Positions 2,941 through 63,355 of a DNA stretch of 64,000 bases are shown one piece after another. The translations under genes and the position numbers were made by a program. This DNA is from Minisyncoccota bacterium (GTDB lineage: Bacteria > Patescibacteriota > Minisyncoccia > Phycocordibacterales > UBA9973), in assembly GCA_036405895.1 (NCBI GenBank), contig DASWWS010000001.1, forward strand, positions 244,468 to 308,467, written 5' to 3'. The notes beneath the pieces were generated by a model. That model made no database searches, was not told where the DNA came from, and worked only from the letters and a program-made list of their open reading frames with translations. Within the stretch, counting starts at the first letter, position 1, and the number at the start of each line of letters is the position of its first letter.

Positions 2941-3669
2941 ATGGTGCTCAACGTTGTTGCAACCCCTATTGGGAATCTCAAAGACATCACCCTTCGCGCA
3001 AAAGAGGTACTTGAAAGTGCAACACTGATTCTTGCAGAAGACACGCGAAGCATTAAGAAATTGCTCACGCTTTTGGATATCCCACTAGGAGGGAAGGTAT
3101 ATGTCTCTTCGCATGCACAAAGCACGCAGACAGCCCTACAGAAGGCAATAGAGGCATGTGTTGAGCACGAAACAATTGCTCTGGTGACCGATGCCGGCAC
3201 ACCCGCAATATCCGACCCGGGATCATTGTTTATTCATGAATTCCGCACGGCATATCCACAGGCAACCGTGGTGCCGATTCCTGGGGTCTCTGCAGTAGTT
3301 GCAGCGCTTTCAGTATCCGGCTTTCCCGGCAACCACTTTGAATTTATCGGCTTTGTTCCGCATAAAAAAGGGCGGCAAACACTTTTCAATACTATTGCTC
3401 AAACCGAGCACACGGTGTGCATGTACGAGTCTCCCCACCGCATTCTCAAAACTCTTGAGGCGCTTGCAGAAGTTCTGGGCGACCGGCCAATACTCGTAGG
3501 GCGCGAGATGACAAAAAGCTTTGAAGAATATCCAGTGGGTACGGCAAAAGAGCTCTTGGAGTACTACACTGACAATACAGACAAGGTCCGCGGAGAGTTT
3601 GTCGTTGTTGTTGCGCCTCAGTATATGAGCACTGTGCAGGAGCGCGACGCATCTGATACAATAGAGTAA
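2941..3669 (+). CDS. rsmI: 16S rRNA (cytidine1402-2'-O)-methyltransferase RsmI (tetrapyrrole-methylase fold)
   Basis: N-terminus LNVVATPIGNLKDITLRA...LAEDTR, ...VTDAGTPAISDPG; GAGG SD 6 nt upstream. Confidence 0.85.
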   Translation: MVLNVVATPIGNLKDITLRAKEVLESATLILAEDTRSIKKLLTLLDIPLGGKVYVSSHAQSTQTALQKAIEACVEHETIALVTDAGTPAISDPGSLFIHEFRTAYPQATVVPIPGVSAVVAALSVSGFPGNHFEFIGFVPHKKGRQTLFNTIAQTEHTVCMYESPHRILKTLEALAEVLGDRPILVGREMTKSFEEYPVGTAKELLEYYTDNTDKVRGEFVVVVAPQYMSTVQERDASDTIE

Positions 3670-3857
3670 TGTTGAGCAAGTTACGAACACTCTTTTGGTT
3701 GGGCATTGCCATGCTTTGTATTTCTTTTGTAGGCATTCCTGATGCATGGAAAATGGTGATTGCATTTGGTGTCGGGGCCGTACTCATCGCACTCGCTCTT
3801 GGCCTTCGCCGCGACTACCTAAAGCTTCGATTGAAGCTAAAAGAATATGCACAATAA
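3669..3857 (+). CDS. Small two-helix membrane protein, hypothetical
   Basis: 62 aa, two hydrophobic helices; ATG overlaps rsmI stop. Confidence 0.3.
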   Translation: MLSKLRTLFWLGIAMLCISFVGIPDAWKMVIAFGVGAVLIALALGLRRDYLKLRLKLKEYAQ

Positions 3858-5085
3858 AAGGGAAGAAGAAACAATTGAAATAGAGCAGGGAGCGCATGTG
3901 CAAACAGGAATGCGCGTGTTCGGCACCATTATTTTCGGTATCGTTGTATTTTTAGCAGGCGTCTATGTGGGGTTTGAAAACCGCCCATCGGTCCAAAAAG
4001 TAACAGGGCTTTTTAATAAAGAAACTGCCATTGCAGCCGAGACCGACTTCAATCCGTTTTGGAAAGCGTGGCAGGCGGTGGATGAAAAATTCCCGGGAGC
4101 AAGCGACACTTCAAATGCCGACCGCATGTATGGCGCCATCAAGGGCATGCTCGCATCATTTGACGACCCGTACACCACTTTTTTCACTCCAAGCGAAAAC
4201 ACTATTTTTGAAACTGAAATCAACGGAGAATTTTCAGGTGTGGGTATTGAGCTTGGCGAGAAAGACGGCATCTTAACCGTTATCGCGCCTCTGAAGAATA
4301 CACCAGCCGACAAGGCAGGAATATTGCCGGGAGATAAGATTGTGAAGATTGCAGACACTATCACTACAAATATGTCGATTGATGACGCAATCGATTTGAT
4401 TCGCGGCGAAAACGGTACAGCAATTGCGCTCACCATTTTCCGTGAAGGATTCACCGAGCCAAAGGTGTACGAGTTGATTCGAAGCACAATCGTGCTTCCG
4501 ACCGTTGAAACAGAAACAATTGACGGTGTGTTTGTTATCCATCTCTACAATTTCTCCGCGCAATCTGTTGGGCAGTTCAAGACTGCTCTCCAGGAATACG
4601 CCGCATCAGGAAACACAAAGCTTCTTCTTGACCTCCGCGGAAACCCGGGCGGATACCTCGATGCTGCTGTCTCTATTGGAAGCTGGTTTATTCCAAGCGG
4701 GCAGGTTATCGTAAAAGAAATCGGCAAAACCGAAAGCGACACTATTTTGCACACGAGTGCGGGGCCCGTACTCTTTCCTGCAAACAACAAGCTTGTTGTT
4801 CTTGTCGACAAAGGCTCTGCTTCCGCCTCTGAAATATTGGCAGGTGCGCTTTCAGAACACGGTATCGGGCAGCTTGTCGGTACGCAGACATACGGAAAAG
4901 GCTCAGTACAGGAAGTGATCCCTATTACGAGCGACACTTCAATGAAGGTGACCGTTGCCAAGTGGTATACCCCAAAGGGCGTGTCGATTTCAGATCACGG
5001 GCTTACTCCAAGCGTGGTTATCCCATACAATCCTGAAAGCACTGTCGATACGCAGCTTCAGGCAGCAATTGATTTGTTTAAATAA
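3847..5085 (+). CDS. ctpA: C-terminal processing peptidase, S41 family (PDZ + tail-specific protease domain), membrane anchored
   Basis: PDZ-like GVGIELGEKDG...PADKAGILPGDKIVKI; S41 motifs LLLDLRGNPGG and VLVDKGSASASEILAG. Confidence 0.85.
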   Translation: MHNKREEETIEIEQGAHVQTGMRVFGTIIFGIVVFLAGVYVGFENRPSVQKVTGLFNKETAIAAETDFNPFWKAWQAVDEKFPGASDTSNADRMYGAIKGMLASFDDPYTTFFTPSENTIFETEINGEFSGVGIELGEKDGILTVIAPLKNTPADKAGILPGDKIVKIADTITTNMSIDDAIDLIRGENGTAIALTIFREGFTEPKVYELIRSTIVLPTVETETIDGVFVIHLYNFSAQSVGQFKTALQEYAASGNTKLLLDLRGNPGGYLDAAVSIGSWFIPSGQVIVKEIGKTESDTILHTSAGPVLFPANNKLVVLVDKGSASASEILAGALSEHGIGQLVGTQTYGKGSVQEVIPITSDTSMKVTVAKWYTPKGVSISDHGLTPSVVIPYNPESTVDTQLQAAIDLFK

Positions 5086-5092
5086 TTTTATT

Positions 5093-5539
5093 ATGAAAGT
5101 AATCCTTCTTAAAAACGTACCAAAGCTCGGAAAGAAAGATGATGTTGTCGAAGTAAACCAGGGCTATGCGGCAAATGCATTGTTTCCAAGCAAACTCGCA
5201 ATGCCGGCAACTGATGTCGCCATTGCCAACAGCAAGGCGCGCACTCAGCACAAGGTTGCAGAGAAGGAAATCCAGCACAACCTGCTCGACCGTGCCATTG
5301 GCGAACTGGAGGGCAAAGCGCTGGTATACAAGGCAAAGGCGAATGAAAAGGGGAGTCTCTTCTCAAAAGTCGATGTCGCCGATATCAGTGCCGAATTGTT
5401 GAAGCAGTACCGCATTGCGGTGGATGCAAAGCTTATGAAGCTCGAGGGCGCCCCTATCAAGCAAGCGGGAACGTACGTGGTCGAAGTAGTAGACGGAAAA
5501 TACAAGTCTTCATTTTCAGTTGATATAATAGGGGAGTAG
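5093..5539 (+). CDS. rplI: 50S ribosomal protein L9
   Basis: MKVILLKNVPKLGKKDDVVEV... classic L9 N-terminus; ORF-track start trimmed to internal ATG 5093. Confidence 0.85.
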   Translation: MKVILLKNVPKLGKKDDVVEVNQGYAANALFPSKLAMPATDVAIANSKARTQHKVAEKEIQHNLLDRAIGELEGKALVYKAKANEKGSLFSKVDVADISAELLKQYRIAVDAKLMKLEGAPIKQAGTYVVEVVDGKYKSSFSVDIIGE

Positions 5540-5540
5540 T

Positions 5541-6050
5541 ATGAAAAACCGCGGATTTACATTGATTGAACTTCTGGTTGTCATTGCAGTCATTGGCATT
5601 CTTGCTTCTGTGGTATTGGCAAGTTTGAATAGCGCTCGCGCAAAAGGACGCAACGCTCGCCGGGCAAGCGATGTAAAACAAATAATGCTTGCATTTCAAA
5701 TGGCAATCAATGATACAGGGACGGTTCCTTCTGTGGCCGCCGAGCACTGCATCAGCGCAACGTGCTATGAATCGTGGGCGAACTATGTCCGAAACAGCAC
5801 TGTTGATGCATGGCTCGCCCCGTATTTGCCAACATGGCCAAGCGACCCTGTTGGAGGGCGGGCTCGAGGAGGCTATCTGTATTTTCTTAATTTCCCCGGA
5901 GGCACTACGCCGTATGACGGCTCTCCCGCACCGGCCGGGCACATAATAAACTGGGCAACAGAGCCGCCATTATCAGCAACTTCATGCAGTGGGGGAAAAG
6001 TGTGGGCTGTGGAATCTAATTACGTAGAGTGTGTTTTATATATTAATTAA
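5541..6050 (+). CDS. Prepilin-type N-terminal cleavage/methylation domain protein (type IV pilin-like) 1
   Basis: MKNRGFTLIELLVVIAVIGILASVVLASLNSARAKGR: G|FTLIE class III signal; Cys pairs in C-terminal domain. Confidence 0.8.
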   Translation: MKNRGFTLIELLVVIAVIGILASVVLASLNSARAKGRNARRASDVKQIMLAFQMAINDTGTVPSVAAEHCISATCYESWANYVRNSTVDAWLAPYLPTWPSDPVGGRARGGYLYFLNFPGGTTPYDGSPAPAGHIINWATEPPLSATSCSGGKVWAVESNYVECVLYIN

Positions 6051-6518
6051 ATGAATTATAAGAGAGGCTTTACTTTAATAGAACTCCTTGTCGTCATTGC
6101 TGTCATTGGCATTCTTGCTTCTGTCGTTCTTGCGTCCCTCAACAGCGCACGAGCAAAAGCGCGCGATGCGCGCCGATTGGCGGACATCAACCAAGTAGCG
6201 ACAGCTCTTGAATTTTATTACGACAAGTACGGATACTATCCCGCATACGCAACAGTAGGGGGGCGCGATTGTTCGGGCTGGAACGGAATTCTTCCAAGCA
6301 GTGACACTTTCATGAAGCCTCTTGTTGATGAAGGATTTCTTGGTAAACCTTTGATGGACCCAAAGCCGGTAGATTGCGTCATGCAGTATCGCGACGAGAC
6401 AGCAGGGCAAGGGTACCGCCTTATTTTCCGCTACGAAACAAGGACCAACAATGACCTGACCTGTTATGCATTGGGCGGATGGAGCTGTATCAAGAAAAAT
6501 ACTACCGCTACCAACTAG
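6051..6518 (+). CDS. Type IV pilin-like protein 2 (paralog)
   Basis: MNYKRGFTLIELLVVIAVIGILASVVLASLNSARAKARD; C-terminal domain shared with pilin 3 (FMKPLVDEGFL, GQGYRLIF-YET, GGWSCI). Confidence 0.8.
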   Translation: MNYKRGFTLIELLVVIAVIGILASVVLASLNSARAKARDARRLADINQVATALEFYYDKYGYYPAYATVGGRDCSGWNGILPSSDTFMKPLVDEGFLGKPLMDPKPVDCVMQYRDETAGQGYRLIFRYETRTNNDLTCYALGGWSCIKKNTTATN

Positions 6519-6519
6519 T

Positions 6520-6993
6520 ATGAATAAGCAGCAGAAAGGATTCACTCTCATAGAGCTCCTGGTGGTGATTGCCGTTATCGGAATCCTTGCTTCTGTTGTT
6601 CTTGCTTCATTAAACAGTGCGCGTGCAAAAGCTCGCGATGCAAAGAAAATGGCAGACATGAAGTCAGTTTCTACCGCGCTTGAATTGTATTACGACAAAT
6701 ACGGCACATACCCCTTGTGGCAGCAAACTGCATGGGGAATAGACTGCGCCGGTTTTCGAGGGTCTTCAGCTGCGAGCAACACTTTCATGAAGCCGCTTGT
6801 TGATGAAGGATTCCTTTCTGTATACCCTAATGACACGAGAGGAAACTGTTTTATGCAGTATCGAGAAGAAAAGGCTGGGCAAGGGTACCGTTTGATCTTT
6901 CTTTATGAGACAAAGCCCAATAATGACCTTAAGTGCTATACGGACGGCGGATGGAGCTGTATTCGCGTAAACTTTGATGATGCAGTGGATTAA
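6520..6993 (+). CDS. Type IV pilin-like protein 3 (paralog)
   Basis: MNKQQKGFTLIELLVVIAVIGILASVVLASLNSARAKARD; start trimmed from ORF-track 6466 to the ATG preceding pilin N-terminus. Confidence 0.8.
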   Translation: MNKQQKGFTLIELLVVIAVIGILASVVLASLNSARAKARDAKKMADMKSVSTALELYYDKYGTYPLWQQTAWGIDCAGFRGSSAASNTFMKPLVDEGFLSVYPNDTRGNCFMQYREEKAGQGYRLIFLYETKPNNDLKCYTDGGWSCIRVNFDDAVD

Positions 6994-7001
6994 ATAAAAA
7001 A

Positions 7002-7025
7002 CCTCTCATGTAGAGAGGTTTTTTA
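7002..7025. terminator. Bidirectional intrinsic terminator (pilin cluster / rpmA)
   Basis: CCTCTC-atgta-GAGAGG hairpin flanked by A-run and T-run. Confidence 0.6.
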
Positions 7026-7310
7026 TTATGCGCGTTCTGCGAGAATGTTTGCCATCTTGCGAACGGTAGTCGTACCGTCGAAGTTGTCCTTGCGCTTGTT
7101 AGTGAATTTTACAAATCCAGGCTTCAGGGCGTAGAGAGTGTGGTCTTTTCCAAGGCCAACATCCTTTCCGGCCATGATTTTGGTGCCGCGCTGGCGTACA
7201 ATAACAGAACCAGCCTTTGCTACCTGGCCGTCATACAATTTAGTACCCAGGTATTGTGGGTTGGAATCATTTAGGTTTTTTGCCGCTCCTTGGGCTTTCT
7301 TATGTGCCAT
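7026..7310 (-). CDS. rpmA: 50S ribosomal protein L27
   Basis: [12 protein letters not shown]...[27 protein letters not shown] matches L27 signature. Confidence 0.85.
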
Positions 7311-7378
7311 AGTGGGTACATGATAGCCTGAGGGGGAAGAAATGTCAATCCTTCTTCTATAGGATATACTATGAAATA

Positions 7379-7756
7379 GTGAGCAATTTCCTGATTCGGC
7401 ACTATCGCACCCTTTTTACCATACTTCTCATTGCCATGCTTCTTTTGGCCTTTTTAATGGGCTTTTTGACGGGGAAACAGCAACAATCTCCGGCGGTAGT
7501 GCTTTCGTGCAGTCCAGACGTGCTCTCCGAGCTCACCATACCGGTTGCGCGACTCTCTCAGAATGCTATAACAGGGGATAGTAACGAAATTGTAAACAAG
7601 CCGACAAGCGGCGCATTTGTCGGATCGAAAAACGGCACTAAGTACTATCCTCCGAATTGCTCCGGGGTCAGCCGCATCAAGCCCGAAAACTATATTTGGT
7701 TTAAGGACGCGGCAGACGCAGAACTGCAAGGGTATACGCGAATATCATCATGTTAA
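7379..7756 (+). CDS. Membrane-anchored protein with C-terminal Ada-type metal-binding-like domain
   Basis: N-terminal TM; C-terminal KYYPPNC-x8-ENYIWF-x5[12 protein letters not shown] resembles Ada_Zn_binding pattern YH-x3-C...N...F...A...GYR-C. Confidence 0.35.
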
Positions 7757-8700
7757 GATCCATCCTTTCAGTATGCATTATGGGACTCACGGGCTTGCTC
7801 ATGCTTGCCATTCTTTTGCCGACACAAACCAGAGAAATGGCGGAGAATATTCTCTCAGGCGCCAACACCTTCTCATCGTATCTTCCTGTTCTTGATTCCG
7901 ACACTAAAAAAGAGGAGGAGATAAATGACCCCATTACAGAGAAAAAGCCGCTCGACACGATAGAGAGCGCAGTAAAGACCGTTATTGATGCTGTCTCTCC
8001 ATCAAAAGAGAGCGCTCCAAAAAGCGACAACACTCTGACAAACGCAAATATTGTCGACGCAACAAATGCCGAGCGCATTAAGCTTGGCCTCACCCCGCTT
8101 TCAACAAATGCAAAGCTTACCGCTTCGGCAAAAATAAAAACCGAGGACATGATAAAGAACGGATACTTCGAGCACGTTTCTCCGGACGGCGTGGCAGTTT
8201 CCGACCTCGGCACGCAGGTAGGGTATGACTACGTCATCATGGGCGAGAACCTTGCTTTAGGGAACTTCTCCGGAGCCGACGACCTTTTGCAGGCATGGAT
8301 GAACTCTCCCGGACATCGAGCGAATATTGTCAGCGAGAGCTATATGGAAATCGGCATCTATGCGGCACAAGGGCAGTATCAGGGCCGAAAGGTATGGTTT
8401 GCAGTGCAGCACTTTGGCACAGCCCGCGGCGCATGCCCGGTAGTGGACCAACAGCTTAAAGACGATATCGATGACTTCAATACGGCACTTCGTGCAAAGG
8501 AAAAGAAAATCACGGTCCTTCGTGCAGAGCTCGAAGGTATGGAGCAAAACGACAATGAGTATCAAGAGAAGGTTGCTATATTCAACGCCCTTGTTGCCGA
8601 GTACAATTCACAGCTCGCCATGTCCCAAGCCGCCATTGCACGGTACAACAAGCAAGTTGTCGCATTCAATAAATGTCTCGCACAGTATCAGGGGGAATAA
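7750..8700 (+). CDS. Membrane-anchored CAP/SCP (PR-1-like, YkwD-type) domain protein with C-terminal coiled coil
   Basis: N-terminal TM; CAP motifs GYFEHVSPDG, GENLALGNFSGADDLLQAWMNSPGHRANI, YMEIGI; heptad-rich tail. Confidence 0.65.
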   Translation: MLRSILSVCIMGLTGLLMLAILLPTQTREMAENILSGANTFSSYLPVLDSDTKKEEEINDPITEKKPLDTIESAVKTVIDAVSPSKESAPKSDNTLTNANIVDATNAERIKLGLTPLSTNAKLTASAKIKTEDMIKNGYFEHVSPDGVAVSDLGTQVGYDYVIMGENLALGNFSGADDLLQAWMNSPGHRANIVSESYMEIGIYAAQGQYQGRKVWFAVQHFGTARGACPVVDQQLKDDIDDFNTALRAKEKKITVLRAELEGMEQNDNEYQEKVAIFNALVAEYNSQLAMSQAAIARYNKQVVAFNKCLAQYQGE

Positions 8701-60836: not shown

Positions 60837-62105
60837 TTAGTTGACTACTACCGTTATACGGTCTTGATTGCTTGGGAAAAAGGGTGCCCAAAACGGATAT
60901 AGTGTGTATCGCGCCTCCTCTATTTCAGCCACTTCTTGAAGTGCTGTGGTGAAAGAGCGCCGTGGAACTCCTAAAACAGCCTGTGCCACTTTTTCGGTGT
61001 TCACGTTCGTAATAAGAGTGCCGGTGCCTGAAAGCGAGATAGTAAGCGTGTCGGGAACCTTGCTCGCATCTGTTGGAATGGCAGAAATTGGCTCGACTTC
61101 AATATCGCCAAGTGCAGGAATAGAAACAGCCGGGTAGGTATGGTCGCTCACTACTTTTGCCGCAATAGCGCTTTCAAGCAAGTCGCGTCGAATCAGGTAC
61201 GATACCATTGTTCCGGAAATGCTCGCCGGGAACTTGATGTCGTTTCCTTTGATGGTAAGCGAGTCACGATCAATCGTAATAAATTGCAAGTTGGGGAACG
61301 TAATATATTCGCCAGGGATTGCCGCACGGGTCTCGCGCTTTAATTTTTCTGCCAAGTCGGCCTGGAGAGAGAGAATTGCTTCCTCTTTGTCGCTTTCGGT
61401 CAATACATGAGCCATGCCCGCTTCCCCACCCGTAATGGCGCCGGCGCTTCGCGCATAAATCTGCTTGCTGGTGTAGCCTGCCACCGTAAAGCTTGTGCCG
61501 TCGGTATTGTAGCTCTCTCCAACATCAGCCGCAGTCACTGTCACTTGAGGGCTTGTCCCCGCCTTCTTTACTTTGCTCACTGTGGTATAGCCTGGAATTG
61601 TTACCGCAGACTGAGTGATGTATTTCTTGCCATTTGCCGCCGTCAGCGTTGTTCCGCTTTTAATAGTTACATTTTTTGTACTGTTTTCATTGAAAAGCAC
61701 CACCTTCCCCGATGCTTTTGTATTGCTCTGCTGCAACGCGGACGCATAGATTTGGCGAGTAACATCGGTTGTCACCACCATTGCCTGAAATGACAATCGG
61801 TCTGCATCTGCTGTTTTTTCTTCGGCCATATCAAGCTGCAGTGAATCAAAGGAGAATGGAATGTGCCGCTCGGTCACTGTCACTCGTGCATGCACGAGCT
61901 TCATGCCCACAACATACAAGAGTGCGATAAATATCACGGCCCCAGCAACCACTGCAAGCGAGCGCCACGAAAACTTTTTTCGCGGAATACGGCTTCGACC
62001 GGTGCTCTGCAATTCTTCCGGGTACTCTGGAGTGTTTACTTCTTCGATTACTGTGCCGTTTTTTTCAAGTTCTTCTTTGCGGATAACGTCGTAGAGTTTC
62101 ATCAT
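60837..62105 (-). CDS. Membrane-anchored (cytoplasmic N-tail, single TM) large extracytoplasmic protein, hypothetical
   Basis: TM at ~aa 50-70; T/S/V-rich beta-like ectodomain. Confidence 0.4.
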   Translation of the reverse strand: MMKLYDVIRKEELEKNGTVIEEVNTPEYPEELQSTGRSRIPRKKFSWRSLAVVAGAVIFIALLYVVGMKLVHARVTVTERHIPFSFDSLQLDMAEEKTADADRLSFQAMVVTTDVTRQIYASALQQSNTKASGKVVLFNENSTKNVTIKSGTTLTAANGKKYITQSAVTIPGYTTVSKVKKAGTSPQVTVTAADVGESYNTDGTSFTVAGYTSKQIYARSAGAITGGEAGMAHVLTESDKEEAILSLQADLAEKLKRETRAAIPGEYITFPNLQFITIDRDSLTIKGNDIKFPASISGTMVSYLIRRDLLESAIAAKVVSDHTYPAVSIPALGDIEVEPISAIPTDASKVPDTLTISLSGTGTLITNVNTEKVAQAVLGVPRRSFTTALQEVAEIEEARYTLYPFWAPFFPSNQDRITVVVN

Positions 62106-62122
62106 GCAAGTATTGTATTACA

Positions 62123-63355
62123 TCACTCAACCAATAAAAAGCTTTCAACAAACAAGAGTCCTACACCAAGAGGTATGTCGAGTGCAGTATCAGGCGCACT
62201 CTTCACAGATTTTTCAAGTGTTTCTGTTGTAACGATTGTCGAAGAGATTGGTGTATTCGAACGGTGCGCAAGGTACGGGTCGGTAGTGATAGCGCGCTGC
62301 ACAAGCTGTACAAAATGCGGGTCTACAACGGTGAACCATTGCGGCGGAAGCGTGAAGCCGTAGTGTCCCTCATCAATAACGCTTTGCAAGCCTTTCTGCC
62401 AGGTAGCGGTAAATGCGGCAAGAGACTTTTCGACAGTTTGCTTGGCGCCGTCCGAGAGCTTTTGCAATCCATAACTTTCAAGGACCGAAATTGCCTCAGC
62501 AGCAGTGTGATTCCCTTCGGCGGAAAGTGCGCGATAGAGCTCGTAGGTGCCCACAGGAAATGAGTGCTGGTATAAAAAGAGTTCGTCTTTGATGAAGGCG
62601 ACATCAGTCACCTCTTCTCCAACGTCTACAATCACGCTCTCATGTGTTGCCGCAGCACGGCTTCGCAAGCTCACAAACGTTGCGTACGCACTTGTCGTAA
62701 TACCGATTGGGCGTGTGCCGTACAAACGCTTAAGCAGGTCCGTAAACTGGTCCAATACTTTTTTCGGTGCAATAGTAACCGTCAAATACACCTCTATGGA
62801 TGTTGCGCGCTTGCCGTAGGGTGTGTGCGTCACATAGCCGTTGAGCTTTATCAAAGAGAGCTGCTTTTCAACAATAGAGTACTCGGTCCCCAGTGCACCA
62901 AAGCGGTCCGTTTCGTTTTTCAAAATGTATTCGATTTCCTTATCGACAAGACTGTGCACGAGCTTTTCCGTACAGACAAAAGGAGTGGGCTTATTAAAAA
63001 AAATGGTGCGGGTCTGGGAGGTGTACCACGGAGATGCAAGGACAACCTGAATATATTCCGGATGATGCACATCGCGCTTACGGATATCGGTCGCTACGGT
63101 CTCCAGACCCTTCAGTGCTTCTGCGACAAAGCGCTCAATATTGAGTTCAGTCTGTAGGGGCGCTTGCGTGCGTGATTGCGCAAGCACTGCAGCTTTTTCA
63201 ACAAGAGGGATTTCCCCATGTGCAGCTTTTTTAATCAGCGCATGCGCACCACCGACGCTGCTTGAGCTGATATCAAACACTGCAACAGGAATGCTTCGCA
63301 CTTTCGGAATGGACATGAATACAGTATACGAGAGAAAGTACAAAGTCGAAAGCAA
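62123..63355 (-). CDS. Actin-like ATPase fold protein (FtsA/PilM-like), tentative
   Basis: N-terminal VAVFDISSSSVGGA resembles phosphate-1 motif of FtsA/PilM; ~400 aa. Confidence 0.35.
   Translation of the reverse strand: MLSTLYFLSYTVFMSIPKVRSIPVAVFDISSSSVGGAHALIKKAAHGEIPLVEKAAVLAQSRTQAPLQTELNIERFVAEALKGLETVATDIRKRDVHHPEYIQVVLASPWYTSQTRTIFFNKPTPFVCTEKLVHSLVDKEIEYILKNETDRFGALGTEYSIVEKQLSLIKLNGYVTHTPYGKRATSIEVYLTVTIAPKKVLDQFTDLLKRLYGTRPIGITTSAYATFVSLRSRAAATHESVIVDVGEEVTDVAFIKDELFLYQHSFPVGTYELYRALSAEGNHTAAEAISVLESYGLQKLSDGAKQTVEKSLAAFTATWQKGLQSVIDEGHYGFTLPPQWFTVVDPHFVQLVQRAITTDPYLAHRSNTPISSTIVTTETLEKSVKSAPDTALDIPLGVGLLFVESFLLVE

Follow-up and report, generated by a model that had tools for sequence, protein, structure and literature searches.

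Patescibacteria keep few surface machines, type IV pili being one of them, and cultivated Saccharibacteria need these pili for host attachment and survival. Type IV pili (T4P) are nearly universal in Patescibacteria, are encoded at several loci, comprise about 12 pilins in TM7x and are needed for host binding; the TM7x pilins PilA1 and PilA2 have been proposed to act in host binding and twitching (PMC11623550). In Southlakia, most T4P genes are essential (PMC10633639), and the Paceibacteria member UBA5633, which is attached to Methanospirillum, carries pilBCDMT plus pilin clusters (PMC9763046). The locus described here belongs to this well-known kind of gene set in ultrasmall Paceibacteria/CPR bacteria and is not a new system. 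For the Paceibacteria, of which hardly any have been cultivated, it provides a clear case of what look like three conserved, disulfide-braced major-type pilins built on one invariant stalk.

The locus lies near one end of a 64-kb stretch of DNA (the window) from a Candidatus Paceibacterota MAG, whose sister genome is Minisyncoccia bacterium Deming_bin.451; the reduced-genome, episymbiont-type host expected in the initial annotation was therefore borne out. Positions 5541-6993 of the plus strand contain exactly three consecutive prepilin genes, pil1-pil2-pil3, placed between two ribosomal protein genes:

5093-5539, plus strand: rplI, ribosomal protein L9, with matches to PF01281 and PF03948
5541-6050, plus strand: pil1, prepilin of 169 aa, with leader MKNRG at 5541-5555 and predicted cleavage before the Phe at 5556
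6051-6518, plus strand: pil2, prepilin of 155 aa, with leader MNYKRG and Phe+1 at 6069
6520-6993, plus strand: pil3, prepilin of 157 aa, with leader MNKQQKG and Phe+1 at 6541
5553-5654 (pil1), 6066-6167 (pil2) and 6538-6639 (pil3), plus strand: stalk blocks, Gly-1 to +33
6994-7026, either strand: hairpin with a perfect 14-bp stem and A-run and T-run flanks, a predicted bidirectional terminator
7026-7310, minus strand: rpmA, ribosomal protein L27, with a match to PF01016, convergent with pil3

The spacers of 1 nt and 2 nt first reported between the pilin genes were incorrect. The stop codon of pil1 directly abuts the start codon of pil2 (TAA/ATG, 0 nt), and pil2 and pil3 are separated by 1 nt. 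The pil1 gene starts 1 nt past the rplI stop codon, and this junction (...ataggggagtagtATG) is kept in the sister genome L007. The ORF listing includes a further in-frame ATG for pil3 upstream at 6466; however, the start was placed at 6520 because the orthologues in sister genomes L007 and L008, as well as NCBI HEY0980040.1, to which pil3 is identical, have the short leader. Two antisense ORFs on the minus strand (5457-5942 and 6075-6659) were rejected as spurious, since the plus-strand frames are conserved with dN/dS ≤0.1. A simple scan of 3600-7340 found no promoter-like or terminator-like sites on the plus strand. The tight spacing and the lack of such sites are consistent with cotranscription, and rplI is probably the upstream member of the pilin transcription unit. 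The terminator scan passed over the hairpin following pil3 because its T-run belongs to the stem, and RNAfold was used instead, which gave a folding energy of -16.8 kcal/mol for 6994-7026. L007 and L008 have a hairpin at the equivalent place with a different stem sequence. We predict that the hairpin acts as a terminator from both sides, serving the pilin genes as well as rpmA.

By every sequence criterion applied, the three genes encode prepilin-peptidase-type substrates, as the initial annotation had recognized. Each product has a basic leader of 5-7 residues, Gly-1, a G/FTLIE motif with Phe+1 and Glu+5, and a hydrophobic helix, with cleavage sites at MKNRG/FTLIELLVVIAVIGILASVVLA (pil1), MNYKRG/F (pil2) and MNKQQKG/F (pil3). 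The N_methyl model PF07963 matched pil1, pil2 and pil3 with 36.2, 38.3 and 40.3 bits (cut-off 21.2; E 2e-10 to 4e-9), and TIGR02532 matched them with 37.0, 37.4 and 37.7 bits (cut-off 16.3); these scores exceed the curated cut-offs and place all three in the type IV pilin superfamily. When all six frames of the 64 kb were scanned for the pattern G[FYMLIVA][STA][LIVM][IVLMT]E followed by a hydrophobic run, the sites of the three pilins were the only ones returned. In each pilin, an N-terminal hydrophobic helix of ~53 residues is joined to a small alpha/beta head that contains four cysteines, and there is no accessory domain. AlphaFold models were pilin "lollipops" (pLDDT 87 and 91; for pil3, AF2 pLDDT 87) in which an alpha1 helix of ~50 residues sits on an antiparallel beta-sheet. 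In the PDB, the best matches of the models were exclusively type IV pilins or pseudopilins, and their scores were weak; for the pil3 model, the first 17 PDB matches from Foldseek were all of these two kinds (best E 3.6e-3). No Pfam head family was recognized in the heads of pil1, pil2 or pil3, and T2SSG (PF08334) matched none of the three pilins, 3 of 54 relatives of pil2/3 and 0 of 67 relatives of pil1.

Over the 34 residues from Gly-1, pil2 and pil3 are 100% identical to each other and 94% identical to pil1, and four more paralogues in this species carry the same stalk block. We rejected the idea that a recent duplication or gene conversion made the N-termini identical, as the stalk blocks share 70-78% nucleotide identity and differ synonymously at 17-23 of 34 codons between paralogues. 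Amino acid identity despite saturated synonymous divergence shows that the stalks are held by purifying selection. Over their full length pil2 and pil3 are 68% identical, with 59% identity between their heads; for pil1 compared to these two, the corresponding values are 39-41% and 22-23%. The low head identity agrees with the earlier description of pilin 1 as having a different head, but the difference is incomplete, given that 60 columns still align (E 4e-5, probability 70%). Head-only profile-profile comparison identified a core common to pil1 and pil2/3 (...FL..P.DP..G..Y.Y...). Each pilin has exactly four cysteines, at mature positions 65/70/144/159 in pil1, 68/103/132/140 in pil2 and 69/103/132/140 in pil3. 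In the pil1 family all four cysteines are invariant, with exactly four in 64 of 67 members, and the cysteine number is even in 53 of 54 members of the pil2/3 family, where co-occurrence favors the pairs C1-C4 and C2-C3 in an alignment-dependent manner. The pil1 head is a lineage-specific family.

The gene order rplI-pil1-pil2-pil3-rpmA is found in three genomes (the present one, L007 and L008), and samples SRR11449178-185 contain pilin genes identical to those described here. Orthologues are 95-98% (pil1), 87-92% (pil2) and 82-83% (pil3) identical, and over the same genomes the neighboring L9, S41 protease and CAP protein are 91%, 86-87% and 80-81% identical; rpmA is 100% identical in L007 and L008. 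Where an estimate of dS was possible, pilin dN/dS was about 0.02-0.10, and these values are rough because between-genome dS is saturated (>1, and sometimes not computable). Orthologues that are 82-98% identical in amino acid sequence, conserved like their housekeeping neighbors and with dN/dS ≤0.1, do not fit the antigenically diversified set proposed initially. Judged from these comparisons, the heads are old, conserved paralogues and not fast-evolving variants, and their differences are ancient and maintained, unlike antigenic drift. Horizontal acquisition of the locus was also rejected (GC content 47.9% compared to 45.9% for the window; synteny kept in three genomes).

The proposal of a major/minor pilin set did not hold up either, as all three pilins keep Glu+5, which minor pilins of the K/X type lose, all are 149-164 aa when mature, and none is similar to a core minor pilin. 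The best full-length model for each was the major pseudopilin GspG (TIGR01710), which reaches into the head (residues 4-104 of pil1 and 6-119 of pil3) but scored 47.0, 46.3 and 55.5 bits for pil1, pil2 and pil3 against a cut-off of 88.85, too low for assignment to GspG. The ComGC model NF040999, whose cut-off is 75 bits, gave scores of 24.8, 25.1 and 32.2, too low for assignment to ComGC, and matches to GspH/I/J spanned residues 4-54 only and fell below their cut-offs, too low for assignment to minor pilins. From their sequences, all three look like major-type pilins, with no major/minor split.

A motif scan combined with Pfam annotation of the larger ORFs confirmed that pilB, pilC and pilD are absent from the window; pilT, pilM, pilN and pilO, an A24 prepilin peptidase, and gsp genes (GspD secretin, GspC/L/M, GspE/F) were likewise not found within the 64 kb. 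One ORF (62123-63355, minus strand) was considered as PilM and rejected, with 21 bits to TIGR01175 (cut-off 133) and no Pfam or PDB match; its faint BLASTP similarity to the PilM of L080 (E 0.004) was not counted as machinery. In three relatives, Parcubacteria CG1_02_39_15 (L021) and the Paceibacterota L014 and L080, pilins are flanked by Pfam-confirmed PilM, PilO, PilB (T2SSE plus MshEN), PilT, PilC (T2SSF) and PilD (A24). In L021 and L014, two to three pilins in tandem are located between pilC and pilD, with a separate minor-pilin set after pilD; these tandem pilins are related to pil1, with identities of 43% over 105 aa in L021 and 42% over 135 aa in L014. L080 has one short pilin that matches at the N-terminus only. 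The position of the pil1-related Parcubacteria pilins in pilM-O-B-T-C clusters before pilD points to a type IVa-like pilus rather than a type II secretion system (T2SS). A search of 5.8 billion proteins with the L014 PilB as query indicated that PilB is very widespread in Paceibacterota/Minisyncoccia. This search was uninformative for the present genome, as E was ≤1e-50 for each of the 8000 candidates scored and identities of the top matches were 69-100%; PilB of this genome or of the sister MAG was not among the best 120 matches.

Taken together, these data make it likely, with a probability of roughly 0.8, that the products of the three genes are major-type structural subunits from which a Paceibacteria (CPR/Patescibacteria) cell builds a type IVa-like pilus. 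The prepilins would insert into the membrane, and a PilD-type peptidase presumably encoded elsewhere would cut after Gly-1 and methylate Phe+1. A PilB/PilC/PilM-N-O machine would then extrude the subunits into a filament whose core would be formed by the invariant helices, with Glu+5 paired with the N-terminus of the neighboring subunit, and whose surface would be formed by the heads; PilT would retract it. Each exposed head may be stabilized by two disulfides. In analogy to the pili of cultivated Saccharibacteria, such a pilus may function in attachment to host cells or surfaces, in twitching motility and possibly in DNA uptake. The best reading of the three heads is that they are fixed variants with distinct functions and not rapidly evolving antigens, and they might be mixed in one filament or used in alternative filaments built on one machine.

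A more specific and rather doubtful extension of the pilus reading is that one machine co-polymerizes pil2 with pil3, possibly along with pil1 and its paralogues elsewhere on the contig, into mosaic heteropolymeric filaments. The stalk would be their shared assembly interface, and at least seven conserved head types per ~1-Mb genome would be a fixed repertoire tuning host or surface specificity. If this is true, pilin expression would be constitutive and coupled to growth through the placement of the genes in ribosomal protein transcription units (rplI in this locus; the spc/alpha region in L089), and the mosaic filament would have a single bacterial precedent among heteropolymeric T4P and none in CPR. 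The pilin triplet is in any case detached from the machinery and positioned behind a ribosomal protein gene, and pil1-3 are candidates for mixed-subunit pili in CPR.

It is improbable that the genes specify a short competence (Com-type) pseudopilus for DNA uptake in place of an adhesive or motile pilus. CPR bacteria are monoderm-like, naturally competent and carry ComEC/DprA (PMC10633639), and ComGC and ComGE models give weak matches to the N-termini of the pilins. However, the subthreshold ComGC match (24.8-32.2 bits) is restricted to that region, and ComGC pilins are ~100 aa in length compared to the 149-164 aa of these mature pilins with their disulfide-braced heads. In addition, the related clusters contain PilT and PilM/O, which Com systems do not have, and the essentiality of T4P in Southlakia is independent of comEC (PMC10633639).

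We consider it very improbable that the prepilin signal serves for export and anchoring only, such that the products are monomeric, PilD-processed surface proteins (adhesins or binding proteins) and not filament subunits. The assembly machinery is absent nearby, and the pil1-type head is present twice at the C-terminus of P0255, a 1152-aa surface protein with a Sec signal, without a hydrophobic helix, which suggests that the head is a free-standing module. Nevertheless, the size, Glu+5, continuous helix of ~53 residues and compact head are features of polymerizing pilins, and the extreme conservation of residues 1-34 across paralogues is more readily explained by helix-helix packing in the core of a filament than by simple anchoring in the membrane.

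Type II secretion pseudopilins (GspG-like) served by a gsp operon elsewhere, the alternative that the initial annotation set against a pilus, are hardly credible even with GspG as the best full-length NCBIfam model, EpsG and PulG among the structural matches and the T2SS names given by PGAP, since the TIGR01710 scores (46-55 bits) are far below the cut-off, Pfam T2SSG has no match, the window is without gsp genes, the pil1-related pilins of relatives are surrounded by pilM, pilO, pilB, pilC, pilD and the retraction ATPase gene pilT, and Patescibacteria, to our knowledge, have neither an outer membrane nor secretins. The GenBank (PGAP) product name of the pilin genes, "type II secretion system protein", is a generic label for any N_methyl protein; it is misleading and is corrected here.

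Compared to known systems, the three pilins have sequence and structure matches to the type IVa major pilins PilA/PilE (Thermus thermophilus PilA4, 6xxd; Neisseria PilE; Pseudomonas PilA). They share with these a short basic leader, G/F cleavage site, Glu+5, long alpha1, mature length of ~150-165 aa, small head built on a beta-sheet and cysteines close to the C-terminus. Unlike type IVa pilins, they have head sequences without a match among the curated head families, and they have four cysteines, predicted to form two disulfides, in place of the usual single D-region pair; their genes lie between ribosomal protein genes, away from the pil machinery. With GspG/EpsG/PulG (TIGR01710, PF08334) they have in common the ...(F/Y)L..P.DP..G..Y.Y... 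head motif and structural matches to 3gn9, 4lw9 and 5wda, whereas they differ in their scores below the curated cut-offs, the lack of gsp context and the PilT-containing T4P clusters of their relatives. The pilin cysteines presumably stand in place of the Ca2+-site architecture of GspG.

The T4P-1/T4P-2 pilins PilA1 and PilA2 of TM7x come from the same superphylum and from a tiny genome with several scattered pilin loci, and are also small lollipop major pilins that have only the N-terminus in common with other pilins (PMC11623550). The present pilins differ from them in class (Paceibacteria), in heads of unrelated sequence and in the lack of a large PilX-like tip pilin in the locus. Multiple tandem prepilin genes in Paceibacteria are also a feature of UBA5633 (PMC9763046) and of the L021 and L014 clusters, and the pilins of L021 form a tandem array of three, are Cys-rich and measure 148-166 aa; in those clusters the pilins lie between pilC and pilD, whereas the triplet is detached and lies within the rplI/rpmA neighborhood. 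In the heteropolymeric T4P of Streptococcus sanguinis (PilE1/PilE2; PMC10628169, 8pfb), where two very similar major pilins encoded in tandem co-polymerize in comparable amounts, the pilins are located inside the pil locus, unlike the triplet; measured against that pair, pil2 and pil3 are tandem genes whose stalks are fully identical and whose heads are only 59% identical.

Three consecutive forward-strand genes, pil1, pil2 and pil3, encode proteins in which the leaders MKNRG, MNYKRG and MNKQQKG, respectively, run into FTLIELLVVIAVIGILASVVLASLNSARAK. Scores for all three were above the curated cut-offs of the prepilin N-terminal domain PF07963 (N_methyl; 36-40 bits, cut-off 21.2) and of TIGR02532 (37-38 bits, cut-off 16.3), and a pattern search in all six frames of the 64 kb found prepilin sites in these three only, so that the tandem prepilin triplet described in the initial annotation is real rather than a chance pattern.

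Features of the pilin locus.
5541-6050, + strand: pil1, 169 aa
6051-6518, + strand: pil2, 155 aa
6520-6993, + strand: pil3, 157 aa
6994-7026: perfect 14-bp hairpin between pil3 and the convergent rpmA (L27), -16.8 kcal/mol, with A- and T-runs on its flanks

The pil1 start lies 1 nt past the rplI (L9) stop, and the spacers within the triplet, earlier given as 1 and 2 nt, are 0 nt (pil1 to pil2) and 1 nt (pil2 to pil3). For pil3, an ORF lister and the Logan gene calls give an upstream in-frame ATG at 6466, which would add 18 codons (6466-6519; the 175-aa protein P0245) and overlap the 3' end of pil2; because the NCBI record and the orthologues in two other genomes have the short leader, the start is ATG 6520 and the difference is an annotation discrepancy only. 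No promoter-like or terminator-like site was found on the + strand between 3600 and 7340 by consensus scan, which is compatible with a single transcript through the S41 protease gene, rplI, pil1, pil2 and pil3. The hairpin structure is kept in two sister genomes with other stem sequences (L007, ~8483-8512; L008, ~4686-4722). The stems in the three genomes (CCTCTC/GAGAGG, CTCCC/GGGAG and CTCCCT/AGGGA) differ by compensatory change, supporting a genuine bidirectional terminator at 6994-7026. Composition is ordinary (47.9% GC; window, 45.9%).

Over the stalk, the 34 codons from Gly-1, protein identity among the paralogues is 94-100% but DNA identity only 70-78%, with synonymous differences at 17-23 of the 34 codons. 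These differences rule out recent copying as the source of the identical stalks, and as judged from the codons the identity is therefore the product of selection.

The heads differ more. Identity between pil2 and pil3 is 68% overall and 59% in the head, and pil1 shares 39-41% with either overall and 22-23% in the head. The pil1 head had been called different; it does form a distinct subfamily but is not unrelated, since head-only profile-profile comparison with pil2/3 aligned 60 columns (E 4e-5, probability 70%), with the common core ...FL..P.DP..G..Y.Y.... AlphaFold2 models built with family alignments (pLDDT 91 for pil1, 87 for pil3) predict with confidence a helix of ~52 residues and, after it, a small beta-sheet. 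Matches in PDB sequence searches were confined to the N-terminal 60-110 residues, and the heads matched no Pfam head family; T2SSG was present in 3 of 54 pil2/3 relatives and in none of 67 pil1 relatives. Used alone as a query against 1.84 billion representatives, the pil1 head retrieved only 87 clusters, 25 of them at E <=1e-10, and in almost every one the protein is of pilin size and carries the head at the same position; by this sampling of sequences it is a narrow, lineage-specific domain. The representative library also held P0255, a large Sec-signal surface protein (1152 aa) with peptidoglycan-binding-like and Ig-like regions, which ends in two tandem pil1-type heads, each with the amphipathic alpha1C part and without the hydrophobic prepilin N-terminus, so that the pilin head also serves as a module outside the pilins.

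Each of the three pilins has four cysteines. Those of pil1 are invariant across 67 homologues, the count is exactly four in 64/67 pil1-family members and even in 53/54 pil2/3-family members, which strongly suggests two disulfides per head. In the pil2/3 family, the way in which cysteines occur together points to C1-C4 and C2-C3 as the likelier pairs.

The arrangement recurs in the Minisyncoccia MAG GCA_049317285.1 (L007/L010) and in GCA_020049755.1 (L008), and an NCBI protein from 'MAG TPA: Candidatus Paceibacterota bacterium', encoded on a 363,743-bp contig, matches pil3 at 100% identity. The window and both sister genomes share the order rsmI, a 62-aa gene, the S41 protease gene, rplI, pil1, pil2, pil3, rpmA (convergent), a small gene and a CAP-domain gene.

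Amino acid identity of window proteins to orthologues in the two sister genomes.
pil1: 95-98%
pil2: 87-92%
pil3: 82-83%
L9: 91%
S41 protease: 86-87%
RsmI: 83-85%
CAP protein: 80-81%

Wherever dS could be estimated, dN/dS was 0.02-0.10 for whole genes and heads alike, ratios that are rough since dS is saturated. The pilins (82-98%) thus give no sign between genomes of the antigenic diversification first proposed for them (neighbours, 80-91%); on these alignments the heads clearly evolve no faster than their housekeeping neighbours, and head diversity lies between old paralogues. Directly past rpmA, a 125-aa protein (7379-7756, +) with a weak C-terminal 'sunset' domain match is followed by a 316-aa protein of the CAP (cysteine-rich secretory protein) family (7750-8700, +); both are conserved in the sister genomes and are probably secreted or exposed at the surface.

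A second pilin locus of the same species (L001 7558-16774, Logan SRR11449178_45261) lies outside the window on the same 363,743-bp contig, as identified by the contig fingerprint of the proteins P0127 and P0140. Its four further N_methyl genes (173, 173, 162 and 173 aa) all have the leader MKNRG and the stalk of the triplet; three heads are pil1-type (45-53% head identity) and one is of another type. Scattered among them are genes for a Peptidase_S74 protein (970 aa), an fn3/Big_6/Dockerin protein (413 aa), an unknown protein (377 aa), a protein with a weak Cohesin match and YceI. Close relatives differ at this locus, since the version in a sister MAG (L011) has only two of the four pilins and lacks the S74, dockerin and cohesin genes. 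A pil2/3-like pilin pair of a more distant relative (L089 9513-10465; ENA ERZ27297427, 183,996-bp contig) comes after S8-L6-L18-S5-L15-SecY-Adk-Map and a 1296-aa protein without Pfam match, and is convergent with rplT-rpmI-infC; pilin arrays among ribosomal-protein operons thus recur in the lineage.

Motif scans of the 64 kb found no PilB/PilT, with neither the Walker A nor the His box of T2SSE present, and no PilD motif or T2SSF protein. Pfam assigned the larger ORFs to ABC transporters, MurG, FtsW, MraY, tRNA synthetases, DnaB, DnaK/J, CorA, BrkB, a histidine kinase and similar proteins, in agreement with the earlier statement that the window lacks pilB, pilC and pilD. With the PilB of the relative L014 as query, none of the best 120 matches, all strong, lay on the window's contig. 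At 62123-63355 (-), a 410-aa protein without Pfam or PDB match gave only a faint PilM/actin-like signal (TIGR01175, 21 bits, cut-off 133; BLASTP to the PilM of L080, E 0.004, around a DxGxxxT phosphate motif). A 422-aa membrane protein with a GlxA beta-barrel match comes next (60837-62105, -), and the pair lies just upstream of rpsM-rpsK-rpsD-rpoA-rplQ.

The pilins found in relatives with pil1 as query sit inside complete type IV pilus clusters, whose machinery calls were all confirmed by Pfam.

Gene order in pilus clusters of relatives.
L021 (Parcubacteria CG1_02_39_15): pilM, unassigned ORF, pilO, pilB, small ORF, pilT, pilC, three tandem Cys-rich pilins (150, 148, 166 aa), pilD, further prepilin-like ORFs
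L014: order as L021, two pilins
L080 (Paceibacterota): pilM, two ORFs, pilB, pilT, pilC, pilin, IS200, pilD

The prepilin-like ORFs after pilD in L021 look like minor pilins. Because PilT and PilM/O are present, these clusters are type IVa pilus-like, and not type II secretion or Com systems. Assignment to the ComGC equivalog (25-32 bits, cut-off 75) or the GspG equivalog (46-55 bits, cut-off 88.85) was rejected. The NCBI records of the triplet (HEY0980038.1 to HEY0980040.1) are each labelled 'type II secretion system protein', a generic label for N_methyl proteins that is misleading here.

The triplet combines a class III signal and Glu+5 with a pilin fold and even cysteine counts; its genes are under purifying selection and tightly spaced behind rplI. 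What stands of the initial annotation is that a CPR bacterium encodes a set of prepilin-type pilins here, with no machinery genes close by. Antigenic diversification does not stand, nor does a division into major and minor pilins, as all three look like major-type subunits, and the pil1 head is distantly related to the other two. PilD would cleave and methylate the prepilins, PilB/PilC/PilMNO would extrude the subunits and PilT would retract the filament, with stalks in its core and heads outside. By analogy, the filament may attach the cell to a host or surface, drive twitching and perhaps take part in DNA uptake, a functional reading based on experimental work with Saccharibacteria (PMC11623550, PMC10633639) and, for Paceibacteria, on genomic and microscopic reports (PMC9763046, PMC10936435). 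These are pilins of a well-known kind, already deposited under a generic, misleading name. Pil1, pil2 and pil3 might be mixed in one filament, a paralogue mixing for which the PilE1/PilE2 heteropolymer of S. sanguinis (PMC10628169) is a precedent.
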